Position numbers and translations under genes: made by a program
Assembly: GCF_030463535.1 (NCBI RefSeq)
Contig: NC_132885.1
Location: forward strand, 19,665,786-19,729,785
DNA from: Salminus brasiliensis
Taxonomy: Eukaryota
Reading direction: 5' to 3'
DNA: 64,000 nt
Notes under the pieces: model-generated
Databases searched by the model: none
Seen by the model: only the letters and a program-made list of their open reading frames with translations
Told to the model about the DNA's origin: nothing
Shown here: positions 3,054 through 64,000 of the stretch, in pieces
Position numbering within the stretch: position 1 is the first letter of the stretch
How the letters are laid out: every line of letters begins with the position of its first letter

Positions 3054-3197
3054 CTTGAAAATAAATGTTTGCAATGAGAAAGCATAATCAGCATCAAGAT
3101 AAATCCACAGTGGGTAACTAATTCATATTAAATAACACCATCATCCTGACACATCATTTCATTTGACAGAAACCAGTTGATTAAATACAGTACTTAC

Positions 3198-3671
3198 ACA
3201 TGACACACTTTTCCAGTGTCTCATAGCTGCATAATCGTCACCTGTAGGTTTGTTTTTACAAGCTGGTTGCTCACTTCTGACTGTTATGTTCCGTGATGTT
3301 GTTTGAAGGCAGACCCACCAGTCTCCATCTATCAGTGCAGTTACGATCCATAGCAAACCCACTGCAAAAGCTCTCAGAAGTCGATTAAGAATTACACCAC
3401 TGTAAGTACAACAGTTCCTGTCTGTAAAAATCTCCAAAAATGTGTTGTCCACCACGATTATAATGCTGAAAAAAATGATGAAGGGAAGAATCATATAAAG
3501 TAAGCAGAACCAGGCGTTGTCTTCAGGGTCGCACGGACAAACAAACTCCTGTTTGAAAAGATAACTGAAGGTAACAAAAAAGAAAGCCACAGCAAAAGCA
3601 CCACCAGCTGATGTTAGTACTTTTGGTAGGGCTGCAGTATCAAAGTTTGGATGTTGCATGGCAGGTTGCAT
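3198..3671 (-). CDS. CALHM/FAM26-like paralog A, coding exon 1 (N-term, TM1-3, FVCPC and LIDGDWWVC motifs); donor GTAAGT at 3197-3192
   Basis: ORF 3159..3671 minus. Motifs LLTSAGGAF, FVCPCD, ALIDGDWWVC resemble human CALHM5/6 (LLTAGGERIF, FQCPCS, ALLGGAFYEC). Donor immediately after KSVSC. The start could instead be the downstream Met (MQHPNFD). Confidence 0.65.
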
Positions 3672-9075: not shown

Positions 9076-11800
9076 TTTGGTCATGTTCAGGTTGCAGTTG
9101 ATCAGGATTTGGGGTTGATGCTGGTTGTGTTCAGGTTGCAGTTGATCAGGATTTGGGGTTGATGCTGGTCGTGTTCAGGTTGCAGTTGATCAGGATTTGG
9201 GGGTTGATGCTGGTCGTGTTCAGGTTGCAGTTGTTCAGGATTTGGGGGTTGATGCTGGTCATGTTCAAGTTGCAGTTGATCAGGATTTGGGGGTTTATGC
9301 TGGTCGGGTTCAGGTTGCAGTTGTTCAGGATTTGGGGGTTGATGCTGGTCGTGTTCAAGTTGCAGTTGATCAGGATTTGGGGTTGATGCTGGTCGTGTTC
9401 AGGTTGCAGTTGATCAGGATTTGGGGGTTGATGCTGGTCGGGTTCAGGTTGCAGTTGATCAGGATTTGGGGGTTGATGCTGGTCGTGTTCAGGTTGCAGT
9501 TGATCAGGATTTTGGGTTGATGCTGGTCGTTTTCAGGATGCAGTTGATCAGGATTTGGGGGTTGATGTTGGTCGTGTTCAGGATGCAATTGATCAGATTT
9601 GGGGGTTTATGCTGGTCGGGTTCAGGTTGCAGTTGATCAGGATTTGGGGTTGATACTGGTTGTGTTCAGGTTGCAGTTGATCAGGATTTGGGGTTGATGC
9701 TGGTTGTGTTCAGGTTGCAGTTGATCAGGATTTGGGGTTGATGCTGATGGGGTTCAGGTTGCAGTTGATCAGGATTTGGGGGTTGATGCTGGTCAGGTTC
9801 AGGTTGCAGTTGATCAGGATTTGGGGGTTGATGCTGGTCAGGTTCAGGTTGCAGTTGATCAGGATTTGGGGTTGATGCTGGTCGTGTTCAGGTTGCAGTT
9901 GATCAGGATTTGGGGTTGATGCTGGTCGTGTTCAGGTTGCAGTTGATCAGGATTTTGGGTTGATGCTGGTCGTTTTCAGGATGCAGTTGATCAGGATTTG
10001 GGGGTTGATGTTGGTCGTGTTCAGGATGCAATTGATCATATTTGGGGGTTTATGCTGGTCGGGTTCAGGTTGCAGTTGATCAGGATTTGGGGTTGATACT
10101 GGTTGTGTTCAGGTTGCAGTTGATCAGGATTTGGGGTTGATACTGGTTGTGTTCAGGTTGCAGTTGATCAGGATTTGGGGTTGATGCTGATGGGGTTCAG
10201 GTTGCAGTTGATCAGGATTTGGGGGTTGATGCTGGTCAGGTTCAGGTTGCAGTTGATCAGGATTTGGGGTTGATGCTGGTCAGGTTCAGGTTGCAGTTGA
10301 TCAGGATTTGGGGTTGATGCTGGTTGGGTTCAGGTTGCAGTTGATCAGGATTTGGGGTTGATGCTGGTCGGGTTCAGGTTGCAGTTGATCAGATTTTGGG
10401 GTTGACGCTGGTCGGGTTCAGGTTGCAGTTGATCAGATTTTGGGGTTGATGCTGGTCAGGTTCAGGTTGCAGTTGATCAGGATTTGGGGGTTGATGCTGG
10501 TCAGGTTCAGGTTGCAGTTGATCAGGATTTGGGGGTTGATGCTGGTCAGGTTCAGGTTGCAGTTGATCAGGATTTGGGGGTTGATGCTGGTCAGGTTCAG
10601 GTTGCAGTTGATCAGGATTTGGGGGTTGAAACTGGTCGGGTTCAGGTTGCAGTTGATCAGGATTTGGGGGTTGAAACTGGTCGGGTTCAGGTTGCAGTTG
10701 ATCAGGATTTGGGGGTTGATGCTGGTCAGGTTCAGGTTGCAGTTGATCAGGATTTGGGGTTGATGCTGGTTGTGTTCAGGTTGCAGTTGATCAGGATTTG
10801 GGGGTTGATGCTGGTCGTGTTCAGGTTGCAGTTGATCAGGATTTTGGGTTGATGCTGGTCGTTTTCAGGATGCAGTTGATCAGGATTTGGGGGTTGATGT
10901 TGGTCGTGTTCAGGATGCAATTGATCAGATTTGGGGGTTTATGCTGGTCGGGTTCAGGCTGCAGTTGATCAGGATTTGGGGTTGATACTGGTTGTGTTCA
11001 GGTTGCAGTTGATCAGGATTTGGGGTTGATGCTGGTTGTGTTCAGGTTGCAGTTGATCAGGATTTGGGGTTGATGCTGGTTGTGTTCAGGTTGCAGTTGA
11101 TCAGGATTTGGGGGTTGATGCTGGTCGGGTTCAGGTTGCAGTTGATCAGGATTTGGGGGTTTATGCTGGTCGGGTTCAGGTTGCAGTTGATCAGGATTTG
11201 GGGTTGATGCTGGTTGTGTTCAGGTTGCAGTTGATCAGGATTTGGGGGTTGATGCTGGTCGGGTTCAGGTTGCAGTTGATCAGGATTTGGGGTTGATACT
11301 GGTCGGGTTCAGGTTGCAGTTGATCAGGATTTGGGGGTTGATGCTGATGGGGTTCAGGTTGCAGTTGATCAGGATTTGGGGGTTGATGCTGGTCAGGTTC
11401 AGGTTGCAGTTGATCAGGATTTGGGGTTGATGCTGGTTGTGTTCAGGTTGCAGTTGATCAGGATTTGGGGGATGATGCTGGTCAGGTTCAGGTTGCAGTT
11501 GATCAGGATTTGGGGTTCATGCTGGTCGTGTTCAGGTTGCAGTTGATCAGGATTTGGGGTTGATGCTGGTCGGGTTCAGGTTGCAGTTGATCAGATTTGG
11601 GGGTTTATGCTGGTCGGGGTTTCAGGTTGCAGTGGATCAGGATTTGGGGGATGATGCTGGTCGTGTTCAGGTTGCAGTTGATCAGGATTTGGGGGATGAT
11701 GCTGGTCAGGTTCAGGTTGCAGTTGATCAGGATTTGGGGTTGATGCTAATCTGTTTCAGGTTGCAGTTGATCAGAACTTGGGGGTTGTTGCTGGTCATGG
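9076..11800. repeat. 44/45-bp minisatellite (GTTCAGGTTGCAGTTGATCAGGATTTGGGGTTGATGCTGGTCGT), about 61 copies, with a roughly 444-bp (10-monomer) higher-order periodicity
   Basis: The variant block gattttgggttgatgctggtcgttttcaggatg recurs at about 9507, 9950 and 10839 (spacings 443 and 889 bp). All ORFs inside are artifacts. Confidence 0.92.
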
Positions 11801-12052: not shown

Positions 12053-12156
12053 CTTAAGGAGAATGTTTGAAAAGAGAAAGCACAATTTTTATAAATTGTA
12101 GTTATTTAATTTAACAACATTTCAAGGAATACAAAATCACTAGATTGAATACTTAC

Positions 12157-12606
12157 ACGCGATTGATTTGTGAAGTGTCTGATATTTGCAAATTCATCAC
12201 TGGTAGGTTCCTTCTTGCAAGCTGGCTGTTCAGTCCTGACTGTTATGTTGGTTGACGTGGTCATAATGCACACTAGGCAGTCACCATCCAGGAGTACTGT
12301 TACAATCCATAGTAAGCACACAGTTGTAGCTCTCAGAATTCGCTTCAAACATGAAATTAATTGACAGGAGGAACAAAGATTAATAAAGATTTTGTCTGCT
12401 ACGATTATAATTCCAAAAAATATGGAAGCGGGTGCAAAAATGTAAATCGAGCAAAACCACAGGTTTTCTTCATGGTCGCACGGGCAATCAAACTCCAGTT
12501 TAAAAATATACTGGGAAGTAACAAAAAAGAGGATGCCTACAAATGCACCATCAGCTGATGTTAGCAGCTGTGATAGCGCTTTAGTGCTGAAGTCCGGATG
12601 GGTCAT
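12157..12606 (-). CDS. CALHM/FAM26-like paralog B, coding exon 1
   Basis: ORF 12106..12606 minus: MTHPDFSTKALSQLLTSADGAFVG...FDCPCDHEEN...TVLLDGDCLVC...HFTNQSR|gtaagt (donor 12156-12151). Confidence 0.7.
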
Positions 12607-15520: not shown

Positions 15521-16573
15521 CTGGAAGACAGATACAGAGAGGTTTTAATGATTCAAGCCTGCACTCAAACCTTCACACACTGCAAGTTAAGATGGTTTAT
15601 TCTTTCTCCTGTAAAGTGGCCATTTGGAGAGTTTCTGTGTGACAGCGATGGCACATCATGCTGGTCATGTTTACACAGCTTGTCCTTAGTCTTCGACCAG
15701 TTGGTTGATTATATGAGGTGAGCTTCAGCTTGGTTTATATGAAAGCGTACTGCCACTCCAGCTTATTCTGGGTCAGATTTGTGGCCCCTGATCCCAGACC
15801 CATAGGCACACCCCAAAATACCTAACACAGCTACTTCCCAAAGCCTGTGCTGCAGCCAAGAAAGGCTGTGTTTCTTGACTGAAGGCTGTTTGGTTTTGTA
15901 AAGTGCTTACGATTATTATCATCATTATTATTCAAATTATTATTATCATTGTGAGAGCCATTATCTCTAAATATAGAAACCCTGGAAGAGTGGTGGATCT
16001 TCACAGAAGTCACAAGAGAACCCAGGCAAAAATGTAAGAAAGTCTACTTTACTTAAAGTTTAACTATATTATTAAAAGTAGCAAAGGACGCAACTCCCAC
16101 TATTTATAATGGCCTGCATGAGATGAACATAAAAAAAGGGCAGGGCTCAACATTACTGATGGAAGGCCAGGAAGAGGACGTTTTGACTTTCACCTGATGA
16201 AGGCCATGTGGTGCCCAAACTTCAAGACATTATTAATGCATTGGGTGAATAAAGGCATCTTTTACGCAGTGGGAGTTGCTCCTTCTTGGGTCAGGGATCA
16301 TTATTCCACCATTAGGAAGAGAGTCCTCTGACATCTGACATATACAATATACAATGGTGGTGGTTGTATAATGATGGTAGGATGCTTTACTACTTCAGGG
16401 CCTGGATGACCTGCTATAATTGACCGCTTGTGGTGCTCCTCAGCGCCAGAGGTAATGCCAGGGTACCTTCTATACCGTAGACACGTGCGTAAAATGAATG
16501 CACACCGCAGATTCAGCGTAAAAGGTTTGTGTGGTTGAATCCTGGTAAGAATTAGCATACAGTAAGTACTCAC

Positions 16574-17143
16574 CCTGGATTCGCTGTTGTACTTTCTTAA
16601 AGTTTCTGCTTCTTGCGGGGTTGGCAAATCCTTGCAGGCGATTTGTTCCCCCGTGCCGTTCACAACGACGGTCCGGACGCACACGTACCAGTCACCGTCG
16701 AGAAACGCGACCACGATCCAGAGGGATGCCGCGTAAAACACGTTCAGCACGTGTCTCCCGATCAGACCGCAGAAATGCCAGCCTTCCTCCCCGAAGCTTT
16801 TGGGGCGGTAACAGTAGCCGCCAGCACAACAGCAGCACTCAAACGTGTCACAGCACTCACTGCTGCTGCAGCACCTTTTCTCCGAGCGGACACAGCACTG
16901 ACACACATAACACTGGCACACCTTCAGCAGCTGCGAGTCCAGCAGGATGAGGATGAAGAACATGATTCCCACTGGAAGCAGCAGATAGAGCCAGCAGTGC
17001 ACCGCGGTCTCCTCGGGAGCTGTGCATGGACACGTGAACACGAACTTGAAGAAGATGACTGTGGTCACCACGGCGATGACCGTCCTTACAGGATGCCTGC
17101 TTAATACGTCCAGATTTGTCGGATAAGATGGATATCGTGACAT
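16574..17143 (-). CDS. CALHM/FAM26-like paralog C, coding exon 1, with Cys-rich TM2-TM3 loop insertion
   Basis: ORF 16301..17143 minus: MSRYPSYP...FTCPCTAPEE...AFLDGDWYVC...NSESR|gtgagt (donor 16573-16568). 190 codons. Confidence 0.7.
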
Positions 17144-36459: not shown

Positions 36460-36566
36460 GTATGGCATTTGACAGGTTCCGATATGATTTGTGTATTATT
36501 AGCTCAGCTGTGTAGAATGTGTATTTGGAGTCTAGCTTACTTCATAGTTTTTCCCTTTTCCTGCAG

Positions 36567-37467
36567 GAGGATTTTATTGATGAGGCCTTGGATAGTGATT
36601 CATTGGATTTTTCATTGGATATTCCGTTAATGGCTGCTTCCATTGATCACCAAGTAATGAGGGCAACATGTTGCTTAAGAAGGCCTAACATTGCACCAAT
36701 ACTTGCCCCCACTTCTGATCTGCCCAAGCCAGAATTGGTTTCTAGTGATTTTGCTTTCCCTCCTCTTTCTGACTACGCAGCACATTCTCGCCCTAGTCCT
36801 AAGTCAAGACAAGTCCGCTCTGAAATGACCTCAGATGTCCCCAGGATCTCAGCTGCATGTTTGAAAGAGGAACATTTTATGCCACAGAAACCAGATACGT
36901 TTGATTCACTGGCTATGAAAAAAATAAATAAATTAGCATCCCGCCCTGCTTCTTCTCTCAGAGGGTATACTTCATCGAATCGAACAGTACCTGTTTGTGC
37001 TGATGCCCTTCCTTATCCTTCCCAGCTAATTCCTCAACTTAATTCTGGTTTTGCGTCTAAATCTCTTGCTTCGTTCTGCACTTCTGAGGCTCTTCTTTCT
37101 CCTGCTCCTCCTCCTCCTCCTCCTCCTCCGCCCCCTCCTGCCCCTACCTCTAAGCCCATTCCTGCTTTTTATTCCGCTCTTCCACACACCCCTCCTCCTC
37201 CTGCTCTCCCTTCCATTCCTAGTTCCTTTAGTTCAGGTTCCTTTCAGCCCCATGCATCTTTTCAAACTGCTGATGCTGCCATTCCTCCTCCTCCTCTTCC
37301 TTCTCATAGATACAGATTAGCAGCTCTTTGTGTTCCTCAGTCTTCTTTTTCTCAGTACCAATTTGCTGCTCCTTCTACATCTTCCATTGCTGCTGTGGGT
37401 CCTCTTACCCTTCTTACTGCATCAGAATCAGCAGTGTGCTCAGAAGAACCTGAATGTTTAACAGAAG
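36567..37467 (+). CDS. parp4: PARP4 exon 29, large (901 nt) low-complexity Pro/Ser-rich exon with a PPPPPPPPPPPP run
   Basis: ORF 36519..37505. Acceptor cctgcag at 36566, donor g|gtaagg at 37468. Corresponds to the Pro/Ser-rich C-terminal half of human PARP4. Confidence 0.8.
37104..37131 (+). repeat. parp4: (CCT)n trinucleotide repeat inside PARP4 exon 29, encoding poly-Pro
   Basis: cctcctcctcctcctcctccgccccct gives PPPPPPPPPPPP. Confidence 0.9.
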
Positions 37468-37606
37468 GTAAGGAATACCACATCAGTGTCAAGAGTCCTT
37501 TTTAGCTCAGTGGTTTCAGATAATCACTGTACTTTACATGACATGTATATACAGTTTTTCCCCTTTTTCTCTTTGTTTTGAATTTGGTTTTGCACTTTTA
37601 TTTCAG

Positions 37607-43822: not shown

Positions 43823-43854
43823 ATGGCTTCGATTGGACAGATCATCTTTTGGAG
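43823..43854 (+). CDS. vtcn1: VTCN1/B7-H4 coding exon 1 (MASIGQIIFW)
   Basis: ATG at 43823. Resembles human B7-H4 MASLGQILFW. Donor ag|gttatc is weak; phase 2 joins exon 2 to give S. Confidence 0.65.
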
Positions 43855-44035: not shown

Positions 44036-44100
44036 CATGATTGTCCTTATATTTGTATGTGCTGGACTCATCATTCTCCTATTGGCAATTGCATTTTCAG
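44036..44100 (+). CDS. vtcn1: VTCN1/B7-H4 exon 2 (signal/TM-like hydrophobic segment MIVLIFVCAGLIILLLAIAFS)
   Basis: Acceptor ctctcacag, donor g|gttagc. Resembles human SIISIIIILAGAIALIIGFGISG. Confidence 0.75.
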
Positions 44101-44384
44101 GTTAGCCTGAATGTTCTGAACATATTTTACTATTTATCAATCTCCTAACTGTTTTTCTATGCATCTTGTATGAAAAGCTTATTGTTGTATTGTTGTGATA
44201 TATAGATAGATTACAACTTCATAAGATCTTAAAATGAAGCGTTATAACAGGAGGTACATAAACCAGTGACTATTACAAACATATGTTGCTGACGCACAAA
44301 AAGACTTTTCAACATAATTTAAATTGTCGGACAGTTGTTCTTTACATTGTGTCAATGCACACTCATCAGCCATAACATTAGTAC

Positions 44385-44790
44385 CACTGACAGGTGAAGT
44401 GAACATTAGTTACATTCATCTACAGTGGCATCTGTCAAGAGGTGGGATATATTAGGCAGCAAACGAACAGTCAGTTCTTGAAGGTGATGTGTTAAAATCA
44501 TAGGTAAGGATCTGAGCCACTTTGACCACTTTGATCTGGGCCAACTGTGTCAGAACACAGTTGGCCAGTGGTCAGTACCTACTAAAAGTGGTCCAAGAAA
44601 GGACAACCGGTGAACCGGTGACAGGGTAATTGGCACCAAAACCTCATTGATGCAATTCATGGAGGCCCCATCTCACAAAAGGGGTTTTACGGAGGCCATG
44701 CCTCGACGAGTCAGATCTGTTGTGGCTGCTCGAGGGAGGCCTACTCAATATTAGGCAACTAATGATACAAATGTTATGGCTATGGTCCAA
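44385..44790 (+). mobile_element. Internally deleted Tc1-like element (TIRs ccataacattagtaccac.../...caaatgttatgg; retains transposase C-terminus PRRVRSVVAARGRPTQY*)
   Basis: Inverted termini plus the characteristic Tc1 C-terminal peptide. Confidence 0.7.
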
Positions 44791-45355: not shown

Positions 45356-45715
45356 CCTCCCAGGGCACTGTGAAGACTAGTGCCCCCTTTCCAGTGGGTA
45401 ACCTAGGACAAGACGTGGTTCTGGAATGCAGGTTCCTCACGAAAACTGGAGGGGATCGTTCTAGTGACGTGCTCATCACCTGGGAGAAAGATGGTCTCAG
45501 TGGGTTGGTTTATCAGTACAAGAACAACGCAGCACAGTTACAGGATCAGAACTCACTGTTCCAAAACCGGGCTCAGCTCTTCCCAGATGCCATCGCTGGT
45601 GGCAACGCTTCCCTAGTCCTGAGGAGTGTAAGGATGGCGGATGCAGGTGTGTACCGCAGCAGTGTGAGTGCTCCTGGAGTCTGGGGTAGAGTCGACATTG
45701 ACCTTAGAGTGAGTG
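45356..45715 (+). CDS. vtcn1: VTCN1/B7-H4 exon 3 (IgV domain)
   Basis: Phase 1 to phase 1. ...DVVLECRF...VLITWEKDGLSGLVYQYKNN...FPDAIAGGNASLVLRSVRMADAGVYRSSVS resembles human ...GILSCTFEPD...IVIQWLKEGVLGLVHEFKEG...FADQVIVGNASLRLKNVQLTDAGTYKCYII. Confidence 0.85.
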
Positions 45716-45902
45716 GTAAGCAACTCCAGTGTATTTTAGTATATTCAAAAATGGGGGGGTGTAACAATGCAGGCAGCCCGTGACTGAATTTGATTCATGA
45801 TACAAAATGATTCACTGTGTGTATGTGGTAAGCCCTAACTTTTGAACGATCATGATACCTCATCATGACATTCATGAGTGTTGTTTTGTGTGCTGTTTGC
45901 AG

Positions 45903-46151
45903 TCTATTCAGTTCCCACGATCTCCAAGTCAGACAATGGCCTAAAAGCTGAAGCTCCAAGATGGCAGTCCAACCCTACGGTAATCTGGTCAGACCAAAAC
46001 GGAAAACAGTTAAACAGCAGCACCCAGTTTAACAATGTTTCAGAGGGAATCGTGCAAGTGGTGAGCAACCTTACAGGCCCACTGACAAGCACCGAGACGT
46101 ACACCTGTGTAATCCAGAACCCCCTCATCAAATCAGTCTCTGCAGTAACAG
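45903..46151 (+). CDS. vtcn1: VTCN1/B7-H4 exon 4 (IgC domain)
   Basis: Phase 1 to phase 1. LKAEAPRWQSNPTVIWSDQNGKQL...ETYTCVIQNPLIKSVSAVTG resembles human LRCEAPRWFPQPTVVWASQVDQG...NTYSCMIENDIAKATGDIKVT. Confidence 0.85.
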
Positions 46152-46479: not shown

Positions 46480-46586
46480 GTGATGGAGATTTGAGGAGTT
46501 CATATTTTCTGACTAGTTCATCACCAAAAGCGCTGCCATTACAACTAGCTGGGATAACCCCCCTTCTTCTCTACATGCTGGAATGA
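46480..46586 (+). CDS. vtcn1: VTCN1/B7-H4 terminal exon (hydrophobic GPI-signal-like tail ALPLQLAGITPLLLYMLE, stop TGA at 46584-46586)
   Basis: Acceptor ctcggcag. Tail resembles human B7-H4 C-terminus ...SWALLPLSPYLMLK*. Total CDS is 813 nt (270 aa), in frame. Confidence 0.7.

Positions 46587-46974: not shown

Positions 46975-47024
<50 letters not shown>
46975..47024. repeat. (TA)n microsatellite, about 25 units
   Basis: Direct reading. Confidence 0.95.
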
Positions 47025-47026
<2 letters not shown>

Positions 47027-47289: not shown

Positions 47290-47572
47290 GGGCAGTGGTG
47301 GCTCAGCGGTTAGAGCGCCGGGCTATCGATAACAACGTTGTGGGTTCGATTCCCTGGCTCTGCCACTGTTGGGCCCTTGAGCAAGGCCCTTTACCCTCTC
47401 TGCTCCCCCGGGCGCTGGAGTTGGCCGCCCACCACTCTGGGTGTGTGTGTACTCACTGCCCCTAGTTCACTAGTGTGTGTGTTCACTACCACAGCTGGGT
47501 TAAATGCGGAGGACACATTTTGCTGTACAGTGTACACTTTACAGTGACAAATATGTGCACCTTTACATATTC
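47290..47572 (+). mobile_element. tRNA-derived SINE (GGCAGTGGTGGCTCAGCGGTTAGAGCGCCGGGCTATCGATAAC...GGGTTCGATTCCC... with box A/B, GGGCCCTTGAGCAAGGCCC core)
   Basis: tRNA-like head with Pol III A and B boxes; the 3' part is shared with the 62588 copy. Confidence 0.75.
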
Positions 47573-48530: not shown

Positions 48531-49021
48531 ATGTCATTCCGTGAGGGAGATCTAGCTCACGAGCCCAAGTCTGGGATTAAGACGATCCACGGGAATGGGA
48601 ATGGGAATGGGAATGGGAATCTCAGTAACTCCAGAGCCGTGTGTCGGGTCTGTGACCGGATGTTTAGGGAGCCTAAAATCCTCCCGTGTCTGCACACTTT
48701 CTGCGCCGACTGTATTCGGCAGATCGAGCCGTTCTCCGTGCTGGGCGCTGACCGGAGGAGACCGTGGTCTGGGGATGAGGGTCTCGGGCGCAGTCCGATC
48801 CCTCTGACGGTCCTGTGTCCTGCGTGCGATTCCGAAGTGGACCTGCCCTCATCGGGCGTGGATGGGCTCACTACTGACCACCTTGCCCTGGACGAAGTGT
48901 TCATGGAGACTCTCCTGTTGGAGGACAGCGTCTTGTGTGATCTGTGCAGCGACAGTGATGCAGGGAAGCGGTGTGAGGTGTGCTGCGTCAACCTCTGCGA
49001 CTTCTGTAGCCAGGCTCACAG
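48531..49021 (+). CDS. trim45: TRIM45 coding exon 1 (RING C3HC4 plus B-box 1)
   Basis: CRVCDRMFREPKILPCLHTFCADCIRQIEPFSV...VLCPACDSEVDLPSSGVDGLTTDHLA...CDLCSD...EKRC.VC..NLCDFCSQAHR resembles human TRIM45 CPLCLGLFKAPRLLPCLHTVCTTCLEQLEPFSV...ILCPVCDAQVDLPMGGVKALTIDHLA...CDLCND...CQTCKANLCHFCCQAHR. Donor ag|gtcagt. Confidence 0.9.
48591..48620 (+). repeat. trim45: (GGGAAT)5 hexanucleotide repeat inside TRIM45 exon 1, encoding (GN)5
   Basis: cac GGGAAT x5 ctc gives HGNGNGNGNGNL. Confidence 0.9.
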
Positions 49022-49739
49022 GTCAGTATGAGCTCATGTTTATTGGTGTAAATGTACAGACTGTCTTATGCAAACGTTTCCATGCGTTTTTGGTTTTCTA
49101 AGTGGGATTAGGTTCACATCCTCTACAAAGACACGTCTGCACATTCCCAAGCACAGTTACTGTGTATGATGTGCTTGATTGAACATATTGCAAAGACTAC
49201 AAAATGTTCAAAAATAATGGCAAATGAAATAAGTTATATATATGTTAATTTCAGATAATATACAGAAATTGAGCTTTAAAATGTGTCATATTTAAGTTAT
49301 ATTTCCACCAAGAAAATTAGCTAAATGTGACTTTTCAACAGGGGTGTCCAAACTTTTGCAGAAGACTGTACTCTTGAGTTTTCTATCTTAAGCTTTTTGG
49401 CTTTATTTTTTCCTGCTGTAACTTTTTCTGATTACCGTCATTTTTATTAGATATTAATTTATATTACTTTTAACTGCTGAAATCATGAACTAATGTTTTT
49501 TTTCTCTTTCCAACAAATTAATCTCATTAATGTTACCATGTCATAAAAGAATCCAAATAATTATAGATTTTCTATCATTTCTATTGGTCCATCCATCATG
49601 AAATTTTGACACAATGTAAATAAGAACAGCCAGATTTACATAATCTCAAACAATGAACAAAATGGCATTACTACATTTATTATATGCTATATGTATATTT
49701 ATTATATTAATATACACTATTTGTATTTTTTATACACTA

Positions 49740-50140: not shown

Positions 50141-50387
50141 GACCTTCATGAGTTGAATTTAGATTGTTAGCAGAGAGAAATCTCTGCAGGGCTGTGGCTT
50201 TGGGTGCAGCTGCAGTCTCTATGACCACCCCCCTTCCCACTTAACAGAAGAAGCCAATAATATTTTTTGTGGACACAAAATTTAGGCCCAAGGGCCCCTG
50301 GGTGGCCAGTTAAGCTTTCCCCCAGCTGTGGCCTTCCAGCACAGACTTTGATATGTCTGACTTAACACATTGCACTGTTCTCCACAG

Positions 50388-51139
50388 GAGGCAGAAGCGG
50401 ACATCAAGTCACTCTATCCATAGCTTGGACGACCTGAAGTCCCAGGGTCGTCTCTCCCGGCCTGTCCTGTGCTCGCTGCACCCAGGTCAGGAGCTGCGGC
50501 TCTTCTGTGACCCCTGTGACCTGGCCGTTTGCCTGGAGTGTGCTGCCGCGTTTCACCGGGACCACCAGTGCAGCCCAACTCATGATGTCATTAACCAGCA
50601 TGGTGATCGTATCCGGGAGCTGGTTTCTGGGAGCCTGAGGCCTCGTCTCGGCCGTCTGGAGGAGGCGCTGCGACGTGTGGAGATATCCCAGGAAGCCTTA
50701 AAGACTCGCACTGATTCGCTGGCGAGCGAGATTCGGGCTTTTGCTCGGAGCTATGCCAGTGCGGTGGAGGCCCACTGCTGCTCTCTGCTGCGCACTCTGG
50801 AGGAGCTGAGGCTTCAGCGGCGAAACCAGCTCAACCTGCAGAGCGTCCAGCTGCAGCAGGCACTGTCCGACGCCCGCGGAAGTGTGGAGTTCGCAGAACG
50901 CCTGCTCACATGTGGCTCTGAAGCAGAGATCCTGAGTGCCAAGGGAGTCACCATGAGGAGGTTAATGAGCCTGCTGGAGTGTGGCTATGATCCACACCCA
51001 GCCACAGTCGGGAATGACAACGGTAGCAGTATGTACTTTTTACCACAGGAGAGCGCTGGGCAGGTGGACAGCTTCCCCATGGTTGGAGTCCTGCATGCCA
51101 GGACAGTAGACCCCAGCAAATGCACCATCCAGGGAGAAG
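50388..51139 (+). CDS. trim45: TRIM45 exon 2 (B-box 2 plus coiled coil)
   Basis: RQKRTSSHS...PVLCSLHPGQELRLFCDPCDLAVCLEC...HQCSPTHDVINQHGD...VDPSKCTIQGE resembles human RQKKTTYHT...PILCPVHPAEELRLFCEFCDRPVCQDC...HPCDFTSNVIHKHGD...VDPAKCVLQGE. Confidence 0.9.
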
Positions 51140-53389
51140 GTAAGGATAAGGGTTAAAGAGGCAAGTTAGCAGTAGTTCATGGAAAAACATGATGGATTCT
51201 TTTGCCCTATCACAGAGCATGTAGGAGGTACTGGTGCATATTTCAGCAATAGAAGAATAGTTTATTAGGCAGCTTTGTCGTTCAGCTGAAAGAAAAGCGA
51301 TTTAGTGGTGGAGGGGTGGAGTTACTGAATGACACATTGGTTCTGGGCCATACAAGGCTAAGGTCCTGGACATAACTATTTTTGTAATTACTATTTTTGC
51401 TAGTTATTGGATAATATAGCTCTGGGAAGACACAGCTGTGATGAGCAGTCAAGGTTATTTCATAGTTAGTGATTTCTGAATGCTCTCATAGTTCAAATAT
51501 TAGTTCTGTGATGTTTAAATTTGAGGAATAACTTCTTTGCATTATAATTAGTATAATCATTTATTTGCATTATTTGAGCAGTTGATATTTCTGCAAATAA
51601 ATGCTCCAAAAAGCAGTATTTTTATTTGGAATTCAGGGGAAATGTTGTCCGTGGTTTTATGAAATACAACGCAAATGCAAATTTCCCTAAACACACTGCT
51701 TATAAATAGTAAAACCAGAGAAACTGATAATGTAGGGTGGTCTCTCTTTCCAGAGCTTTTTCCAGAATGCTAAAACTGAAGAATTGCATGTCAATATAAT
51801 GATGTATTGATATTAACAATAAATCACCCAGAACTGTAAAAACTTGATGAAGCAATTTTAGATGTTTTGATGTTGATATTGAGTGTAGGTGTGTGACTGG
51901 CTCAGTACCCAGGCGAGCAATATCAGTTCTCGCACAATGCTGTTTTACTTCCTAACCCCACTGTAGAAATAGTTAAATCCACTGTAGACAACTCTAGGGC
52001 ACGGGTGCATAAGGGGTCAGATACAATGAACTCTGCAGAATTTGCAGAGAGTACAGCTGCAGCAGGCACACATGCTGTCACTACTAGAGTGCATACCACT
52101 GCCACACTCTCATGCTCTCATCTGGATTTGCTCCAAACCACATTATTCACAATGAAAATACATCACCTGCCTCTTCAGTCAGTTCTGTTCTGTTTGAACA
52201 TCTTACTTTTTCTGCCACAAGCAGAATATACAAACACACACACACACATGCACGCACATGCCTGGGGGAATGGAATGCAGGGAACACTAGTAGATCACAT
52301 TCCTGGTTCCCATGGCAACTTTTCAGTTGGTGGTGTCAGTCCTGGTTTCCTTTGCTGTGTCACAACGTGCCTCATTAGAGGTTCACTTACCAGCCAGACT
52401 GTTAAAAAGACCCTGAGATGGTGTGAAAAGCACACAGCTGTGTGTATTATCATTAGTAACTATTATCATTTATTATTTTTTTATTATTTTGTTTTTTAAC
52501 CAGGTGAGCAGTTTTGAAGTATGACTTTGTTTCTGTCTGAATTAAACCCTGCACTGTGGTGCAGAAAAAGCTCAGAGAGAAGCATAGTCAATGCACTCTC
52601 TTTACTATAGTGTCTCTGTAAAAACCACCTCCATTGTGTAGTGTGCTAAGTCTGTGTGTTGCCTGTACTGAGATAAAAACACTTATGTGAAATCCTCTGT
52701 CAGCAGCTTGTCGCTACATATTGCACCCATGTCCTACTTCTACAGTCACTGTGCTGCTAGAACGTTTGCGAACCTTCTGGCTTGCCCATGTGGTCTGGAG
52801 TAAACGTTTTGGAGGGTAATGGCTTCCTCCTTGCTCTCTTGCCACAAACACAGTTCTTATTCAGTGGTGGACACAGGGACATTGACATCACTCAGTGCAA
52901 GATATCTGCCAATCTGACTGCCTATTTTATTGGGAGGGTAACTGTAGTATATATTTTTGTCATTTGTATAATTAGACTCTAGATGATTCTGATTTATGCA
53001 AAAGTTTTAAAAAAAAATGGGAAGGCTCCGAAACCTTTCTAGTGGCACTGGACCTGATTTGTAGTTTGAAATGTAGGTGACTAAGAGTCAGTTTTTCACA
53101 CAACTGCAGTGCCAGTGGTGACTCGAGGCTTAATAGGCTTAATATGGCTCTAAAAACTAGCTCTAAAGCTTGACACTGTTCTCTTTGATAGGATTTAGAT
53201 CTGAGAACCAGGTATGTGCTAGTGTAAATAACAATAGGCCATTCCACTCAGACAGGGCAAAACAAAAAAATAAATTCTACCTCTTTAGTTTAGTGCTTGT
53301 GGTTAATGATGGAGTAACAAGTTATAGAATGCAAAGCTCTGGAGCAGCTGCACATCTGAGTCTTTGTCTAATGCCATGCGTCAGCTGGG

Positions 53390-62770: not shown

Positions 62771-63337
62771 CCTTTTTTTGCTCTCCAAAATCTGCTTTTA
62801 TCCTCAATCTCAAATATGCCTCAAATGCATGCTGTTTATTTGCCTATTCTTCTCAGGCTGGCAGTGTGCTTTCTTCAGTCTGACTCAAACATCATCAGAT
62901 GTTTCCAGGGGGGTGGGGGTGGGGGTGGGGGGTTCTGCACCACACTTATGGCACATTTGCAACAGGCCAGAGAGCTGCCACTAATTCACCCTCTGAGGGT
63001 GAGTGAGATAAATCAGAGGAGTGCTGCTGTAGAGCAGGAACAGACTGGCCTACTGGCAGCTCAAGGCCTCGACAACGGAGTGAATTAAATGAATAGCTTC
63101 ACACCTCAGCAGAATGTGAGCACATTTTTTGACAGGCACACTTGTGCCAAGGCTATGAATCGTAGGCAAAGAATCTGATAAATAGTTGGAGAACAACCTC
63201 AGATCTGCTCCTACTTTTAGTAGCTGTGGCTGAGTTATTTTTAAACGGTGATGTACAGCATAACCCATGTTGTGTTGAGTGAGTGAAACACACAACTAAC
63301 GTTAAACTAAATGATGTGAATAAATGAAAAAGAACAG

Positions 63338-63509
<172 letters not shown>

Positions 63510-64000
63510 CGGTGCGTAATTGTGAGACGCTCCCTTGCTTTACTAAGCGCCACTGGATGGGATGTTGGAGGACTGAGGGGAGGAGTACTTAGTTGTTGCA
63601 GTGACAACATCCTGGACATAAGAGGCTGGCGGTGCCCATGGCTACTGAAAAAGGGAGGTTTAAGCGCGTCTAGATTCAACAGGAGGATCTGAAGACACGG
63701 AGATGCTTTAAAAAATCACTTCTCGGCGTTTTGGCCAGGGGCTGCGATTTAACCCGCGGCACCGACGAGGTGATGCAGCTGCAGCGGCTAGACAGATGAT
63801 CGGTCTGCTCCTCTACTAGCTCAGATGCCTTTACAGAAAAAGGCGCAGCATTCAGATCAGGTCGGGTGGATTTCGCTATTAAAAGAGGATTTCTCGCTTT
63901 AGTTAGATAACGTCCAGCAGCTGCGATGCCAATAATTATACTGTATTAACCACGGAGGCTAGTCTGTACAGAGGTGGTAATCTTGCTATTTGGTAAAGGT

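Follow-up and report, generated by a model that had tools for sequence, protein, structure and literature searches.

Loss of one canonical cysteine from each immunoglobulin domain of VTCN1 (B7-H4) in Salminus brasiliensis: an apparently ancient change in ray-finned fishes and a probable later one in the Salminus lineage

The window analysed here, a stretch of 64,000 nucleotides (64 kb) from contig NC_132885.1 of Salminus brasiliensis (dorado, a characiform fish), contains the gene vtcn1, which encodes the ligand B7-H4. In the encoded protein both immunoglobulin (Ig) domains, the variable-type IgV and the constant-type IgC, are short of one of the two cysteines that form the canonical disulfide between strands B and F. 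We consider it likely that this is a single functional B7-H4 orthologue in which both Ig domains fold without that disulfide, and in which the two missing cysteines have separate histories: Ala168 in the IgC domain would be ancient, and Ser134 in the IgV domain would have arisen in the Salminus lineage.

A canonical disulfide-bonded Ig domain has a cysteine on strand B, a cysteine on strand F and a tryptophan on strand C. The tryptophan is kept in both domains of Salminus VTCN1 (Trp75 in IgV and Trp181 in IgC), and each domain is one cysteine short. The IgV domain retains Cys57 on strand B (TGC, 45427-45429, + strand as for all codons given here; VVLECRF), whose partner is gone, the canonical F-strand position being occupied by Ser134 (AGC, 45658-45660; GVYRSSVS). 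In the IgC domain the canonical B-strand position holds Ala168 (GCT, 45947-45949; LKAEAPRW) and the F-strand Cys221 (TGT, 46106-46108; YTCVIQN) is kept without its partner. Both Ser134 and Ala168 lie opposite the canonical cysteines in alignments to human B7-H4, to PDB 4GOS and to B7-H3. Cys57 and Cys221 are the only two cysteines of the ectodomain; Cys19 (TGT, 44058-44060) lies in the N-terminal hydrophobic segment (leader) encoded by exon 2. For the residue counts, 51 VTCN1 proteins of ray-finned fish were aligned with 121 tetrapod sequences, one of them human. The Cys57 position is cysteine in all 51 fish and in 118/118 aligned tetrapod sequences, the IgV F-strand position is cysteine in 47/51 fish and 117/121 tetrapod sequences, and the Cys221 position is cysteine in 47/51 fish. 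At the IgC B-strand position alanine is found in 51/51 ray-finned fish and cysteine in 121/121 tetrapod sequences. Because both positions are otherwise almost invariant, chance does not account for the loss of cysteine from both. Fish VTCN1 ectodomains have no further conserved cysteine. Tryptophan or tyrosine stands at canonical cysteine positions in four primate UniRef entries (P0102, P0104, P0115 and P0116), all of them shortened isoform models without Pfam domains. Real cysteine loss in these primates was dismissed, as the entries are unannotated short isoforms in which the next strand is missing, and the exceptions are probably artefacts of mis-spliced gene predictions.

The gene model was assembled from reading frame and splice signals, and comprises five exons and 270 codons on the + strand with an intact open reading frame (ORF), GT-AG boundaries at every intron and a phase 1 junction at the domain exons. 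Its product is 100% identical to the NCBI-annotated VTCN1 protein of Salminus brasiliensis. Exon 1 (43823-43854) carries the start codon and the sequence MASIGQIIFW, in agreement with the annotated N-terminus, and ends at a GT donor; exon 2 (44036-44100) encodes the N-terminal hydrophobic signal or anchor segment, modelled as a helix over residues 4-32. The IgV domain is encoded by exon 3 (45356-45715; Pfam V-set, E=5.4e-8) and the C2-like IgC domain by exon 4 (45903-46151; Pfam C2-set_3, 27.5 bits), while exon 5 (46480-46586) supplies the stalk and the C-terminal hydrophobic tail (…PLLLYMLE) and ends with a TGA stop codon at 46584-46586. An earlier note, made from the letters of this DNA alone, had singled out 45356-46151, which is exactly exons 3 and 4, as part of a VTCN1/B7-H4 orthologue with one canonical cysteine missing from each Ig domain (Cys57/Ser134 and Ala168/Cys221) and a frame intact over 270 codons in five exons, and all of this held up. 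Some of its details did not: the serine codon had been placed at about 45664-45666, 6 bases off, and the alanine codon at about 45933-45935, 14 bases off. The N-terminus it quoted, MASLGQILFW, is the human sequence; neither MASLG nor GQILFW is encoded in the window. It had also raised the possibility that other splice choices restore the cysteines, and none was found that does. Since Ser134 and Ala168 are both encoded in mid-exon, splicing is unable to restore either residue. Two alternative sites for exon 3 were considered and rejected: a donor three codons before its end (AGA/GTGAGT) looks strong, but its product, like that of an alternative acceptor at 45363, is out-of-frame or stop-containing. 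A second exon with a GNASL or EAPRW motif is found nowhere in the 64-kb window.

The orthology of the locus is supported by protein similarity and gene neighbourhood. A search with Salminus VTCN1 returned 51 fish protein matches, and all of the named ones, down to E=1e-52, are VTCN1 or VTCN1-like; identity to human B7-H4 is 35% over 246 aa (E=3e-41). The closest sequence relatives of the protein are VTCN1 rather than other B7 or butyrophilin members. Against the PDB, the sequence matches B7-H3, the IgV domain of human B7-H4 (4GOS), PD-L1 and butyrophilins, and 4GOS is the best per-domain match (E=1.3e-17 over 105 aa). The protein also has the architecture of VTCN1, namely a leader, an IgV domain, a C2-like IgC domain and a C-terminal hydrophobic anchor, with one Ig domain per exon. 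Immediately downstream of vtcn1, two + strand ORFs with Pfam RING and B-box matches (48531-49031 and 50353-51156) belong to a trim45-like gene; its first exon encodes a (GN)5 repeat (GNGNGNGNGN) followed by the RING finger, and the B-box is in the next large exon. In Hoplias, Serrasalmus, Electrophorus, Phoxinus and Pseudorasbora, too, vtcn1 is followed by a gene of the trim45 type (RING/B-box/filamin), and this shared neighbour makes the orthology of vtcn1 secure.

Ala168 does not set Salminus apart. A library-wide search, with naming of cluster members, recovered alanine at the IgC B-strand position in sturgeon, paddlefish and gar as well, and glycine in one killifish. Cysteine is present there in coelacanth, two frog lineages, a caecilian, turtles, alligator, birds and a monotreme, and in the PDB alignment to the paralogue B7-H3. 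As coelacanth, tetrapods and B7-H3 all have it, cysteine is taken as the ancestral residue at this position. The replacement of cysteine by alanine appears to be one event on the ray-finned fish stem, before the divergence of sturgeon and paddlefish, in a sample of ray-finned fishes that runs from sturgeon and gar to percomorphs. Ala168 would then be an ancient clade-wide state, with nothing special about the Salminus locus. It is also no single-base error, as GCT is two base changes from any cysteine codon. At this position of an immune-checkpoint ligand the comparison separates the classes cleanly, ray-finned fishes having alanine, and coelacanth and all tetrapods cysteine. The F-strand partner left behind has been less stable in places: leucine or phenylalanine has replaced it independently in clupeids (Alosa, Sardina), a mormyrid, hake (Merluccius) and gobies (Boleophthalmus, Neogobius), and the orphan cysteine was lost at least four times among ray-finned fishes.

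The history of the IgV position is different. Serine at the F-strand position is found in Salminus only, among the 51 fish. The codon is TGC in the DNA of Hoplias, Serrasalmus and Electrophorus, and Astyanax and Colossoma have cysteine at the protein level; one T-to-A substitution turns this TGC into the AGC of Salminus (Cys134Ser). Valine takes this position in two cluster representatives from minnows (Leuciscidae) in the 51-fish alignment. The motif GVYRVTVNAPK occurs in Phoxinus, Pimephales, Rhinichthys and Siphateles, in one Logan transcript/assembly contig and in three JGI contigs, and its valine codon is GTC in three independent assemblies (Phoxinus, Pimephales and Rhinichthys), with TGC in the outgroup Pseudorasbora. 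All of these sequences, among them loci L004, L005 and L006 and proteins P0025, P0026, P0172 and P0173, keep the B-strand cysteine. Leuciscidae thus share the Salminus configuration of Cys-X-Ala-Cys, there as Cys-Val-Ala-Cys, gained independently and inherited family-wide, and the IgV disulfide would have been lost at least twice, in Leuciscidae and in Salminus. On this comparison Ser134 looks like a recent Salminus-specific change, convergent with that of the minnows, and we infer that it is the species-typical allele. The earlier note had treated the two cysteine losses as one event of this gene, which does not agree with an alanine that is ancient in ray-finned fishes and a serine present only in Salminus; its suggestion that orthologues might carry TGC at both positions was right for the IgV site (Hoplias, Serrasalmus and Electrophorus) and for no orthologue at the IgC site.

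We propose that the IgC disulfide would have been lost once, by the change from cysteine to alanine in the ray-finned stem before the sturgeon split, and the loss kept, leaving Cys221 as a buried orphan. Much later, the IgV disulfide would have been lost in the Salminus lineage through TGC to AGC, which would make Cys57 a second buried orphan. Both orphan cysteines would remain reduced in the cores of their own domains with no new bond, both domains would still fold, and the membrane-anchored IgV-IgC ligand would keep the ancestral function of B7-H4. That ligand function would be kept is suggested because the Cys-Val-Ala-Cys configuration is stable under purifying selection across Leuciscidae. 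A bolder reading is that ray-finned B7-H4 is a naturally disulfide-independent Ig scaffold whose half-cystines have been kept for hundreds of millions of years, perhaps as free thiols with a role of their own; beyond filling the core, they could serve redox sensing, the reversible covalent capture of a ligand or partner, or work in a reducing compartment. This we regard as improbable.

One alternative is that the two remaining cysteines bond to each other, either between domains of one molecule or between molecules in a covalent dimer. It fits with the presence of exactly two cysteines in the Salminus ectodomain, and with an odd number, three, in that of ordinary fish VTCN1. An AlphaFold2 model, run with a 20-sequence alignment, has a mean predicted local distance difference test score (pLDDT) of 87.2 and a predicted template modelling score (pTM) of 0.74, with values of 91-95 over both Ig domains and low pLDDT at residues 257-266 of the exon 5 segment. 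Foldseek matches it most closely to two-domain ectodomains, those of PD-L1, butyrophilins and B7-H3, and its IgV domain superimposes on that of human B7-H4 (4GOS) with a TM score of 0.92 and a root-mean-square deviation of 1.2 Å. Residues 57 and 134 lie in the B and F strand regions of IgV, and 168 and 221 on strands B and F of IgC. In solved two-domain B7 structures (PD-L1 and B7-H3) the corresponding residues lie in the interior, separated by tens of Å. Cys57 and Cys221 would accordingly be expected in the cores of two different sandwiches, buried and far from each other, and their place on core strands of separate beta-sandwiches in a confident model argues against a bond between them. The positions are taken by valine, leucine or phenylalanine in other lineages, as would suit a core-packing rather than a bonding role, and no correlated pattern of retention was seen. 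A new Cys57-Cys221 bond is consequently very improbable. Another possibility is that the loss of structural cysteines marks a gene without function that is beginning to drift. Both canonical disulfides are gone, and a serine would be expected to destabilize a hydrophobic core. Salminus vtcn1 shows no sign of decay: there is no frame break and no loss of splice sites, which are all canonical, nor is there a ratio of non-synonymous to synonymous substitution (dN/dS) near 1 or an excess of changes at conserved sites. Estimated by the Nei-Gojobori method on about 250 shared codons, a rough measure with high dS, pairwise dN/dS among Salminus, Serrasalmus, Hoplias and Electrophorus is 0.23-0.35, and about 0.21 on the terminal branch of Salminus when estimated from a triplet. 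At the protein level only, 8 amino-acid changes are unique to Salminus and 24 to its closest relative, Astyanax (binomial p=0.007; outgroups Serrasalmus, Colossoma and Hoplias), so that Salminus has evolved more slowly. Conservation of at least 90% across the other 50 fishes defines 60 ectodomain columns; the Salminus residue deviates in 3 of these (Val120, Ser134 and Ser175), which is typical for the family (range 0-9). Nor is the alanine at residue 168 a mark of this gene, being common to all ray-finned fishes. In Leuciscidae, pairwise dN/dS after the loss of both disulfides is still 0.27-0.41, and a B7-H4 without either Ig disulfide would thus evidently be a viable, selected protein. Early pseudogenization is contradicted by these observations and has very little probability. 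Of the three readings offered by the earlier note, the disulfide-less Ig pair is the one favoured here, with a new disulfide unlikely and pseudogenization contradicted.

A further explanation is that Ser134 is not the norm of its species, but a private or low-frequency allele, possibly mildly deleterious, or an error of base calling or consensus, and that the typical Salminus protein is Cys-Cys-Ala-Cys. The serine codon is a single base from the TGC of related fishes, the position is otherwise one of near-invariant cysteine, and among just eight Salminus-specific changes this one falls on the most conserved residue. This explanation is unlikely overall. The same cysteine has truly been lost and fixed in Leuciscidae, as seen in three assemblies, the Siphateles protein and the Logan and JGI contigs, so its loss is tolerated. 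An error in particular is very unlikely because at least one real fixed loss occurs among about 50 fish proteins (some one to two on our count), and an error at any one given base is much less probable than that; in a chromosome-scale assembly a real change is much the more probable, and the sequence context is no homopolymer. These arguments bear on error and on tolerance, and leave a fixed and a polymorphic allele undistinguished. Several points weigh against the view that Ser134 is a settled feature of a functional, disulfide-free protein. The collections searched hold one Salminus sequence (a cluster of 1 member, on 1 contig), and an exact look-up found no further contig with this protein in them, which leaves room for Ser134 as a private or heterozygous allele and, with lower probability, as a base error. 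The corresponding look-ups for the Colossoma and Siphateles proteins were likewise empty. No Salminus-specific compensating change is present among the other departures at highly conserved columns, as Val120 and Ser175 are not unique to Salminus, and serine would be a poorer core residue than the valine of the minnows. The confidence of the AlphaFold model gives no measure of stability and is insensitive to single substitutions. In addition, dS is near saturation for some pairs on about 250 codons, and the Salminus branch is long enough that very recent relaxation would stay invisible. Even so, the reading we prefer is a functional orthologue in which neither Ig domain has the canonical disulfide and both still fold.

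Other features of the window were recorded in passing. Upstream of vtcn1, three tandem minus-strand ORFs (3159-3671, 12106-12606 and 16301-17143) match Pfam Ca_hom_mod with E=1e-10 to 1e-13 and look like a local cluster of calcium homeostasis modulator (CALHM-FAM26) genes; the mammalian FAM26/CALHM4-6 genes are on a different chromosome from VTCN1. Also upstream, at 36519-37505 on the + strand, is a 328-aa open frame, rich in proline and serine, with a poly-proline run (PPPPPPPPPPPP) and no Pfam match, which may be a large exon of an unassigned gene. Intron 2 of vtcn1 has, at about 44340-44790, a stretch that by eye resembles a degraded remnant of a Tc1/mariner-type transposon (e.g. cagccataacattagtaccactgacaggtgaag). 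Downstream of the gene, a (TA)n microsatellite, roughly 23 units long (46980-47025), lies just upstream of a tRNA-like sequence at about 47290-47480 (gggcagtggtggctcagcggttagagc...ggttcgattcc), which resembles a tRNA-derived short interspersed nuclear element (SINE). ARAGORN found no tRNA genes in the window, and the tRNA-like stretch is therefore at most a SINE remnant. Low-complexity and tandem-repeat tracts at 409-1152, 10484-10852 and 63302-63692 yield long spurious ORFs; they comprise a Tyr/His/Thr-rich repeat, a minisatellite of the 45-nt type (VDAGQVQVAVDQDLG units) and a long (GA/CT)n run.

As an immune-checkpoint ligand with inhibitory activity on T cells, B7-H4 is also a drug target, and natural variants can reveal which of its structural features are dispensable. 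Its receptor is still unidentified even in mammals (PMC5413580). The pattern described here is one in which ray-finned fishes are without the IgC disulfide that lobe-finned fishes and tetrapods keep, and in which two fish lineages are also without the IgV disulfide while the gene remains conserved. For annotation, it means that the absence of a cysteine from a vtcn1 model of a fish should not be taken to indicate a faulty model or a pseudogene, and it could also help the design of disulfide-free B7-H4 ectodomains. The finding is a modest one, with no new kind of molecule or mechanism: the vtcn1 gene itself is already annotated, and disulfide-free Ig domains are a known phenomenon. A full-text literature search returned nothing on the cysteine pattern of fish B7-H4, although the change from cysteine to alanine in the fish IgC domain may have been described before.

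Compared with the B7-H4 of tetrapods (human Q7Z7D3; 4GOS), the Salminus gene shares the five-exon structure, the MASxGQIxFW leader, the IgV and IgC domains, the short hydrophobic tail, the GNASL...DAGxY and EAPRW motifs and the trim45 neighbour. It differs from tetrapod, coelacanth and amphibian B7-H4 in that all four cysteines are present there, whereas Cys-Ser-Ala-Cys in Salminus allows no B-F disulfide in either domain. With ordinary ray-finned VTCN1 (Astyanax, Ictalurus, Danio, Lepisosteus and Acipenser; identity 45-82%) it has in common the absence of the IgC disulfide, with Ala168 and the orphan Cys221, but those proteins keep the IgV Cys57-Cys134 pair. A parallel is offered by the leuciscid VTCN1 proteins (Phoxinus phoxinus, Pimephales promelas, Rhinichthys klamathensis and Siphateles boraxobius), in which the IgV F-strand cysteine is lost, the IgC position is alanine and both partners are kept, in a gene that is likewise intact and under purifying selection. 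The two cases differ in origin, Cypriniformes as against Characiformes, with cysteine kept in Astyanax, Serrasalmus, Hoplias, Pseudorasbora and Danio in between, and in the change itself, which is to valine (GTC, two changes) in Leuciscidae and to serine (AGC, one change) in Salminus. The leuciscid state is also known from several species and that of Salminus from one genome. Among Ig folds more widely, disulfide-free domains are known from CD2 domain 1, from the V-like domains of CD58 and CD48 and from intracellular I-set domains such as those of titin. These are unrelated families, and both cysteine positions are usually hydrophobic in them, whereas Salminus VTCN1 has kept one cysteine of each pair.

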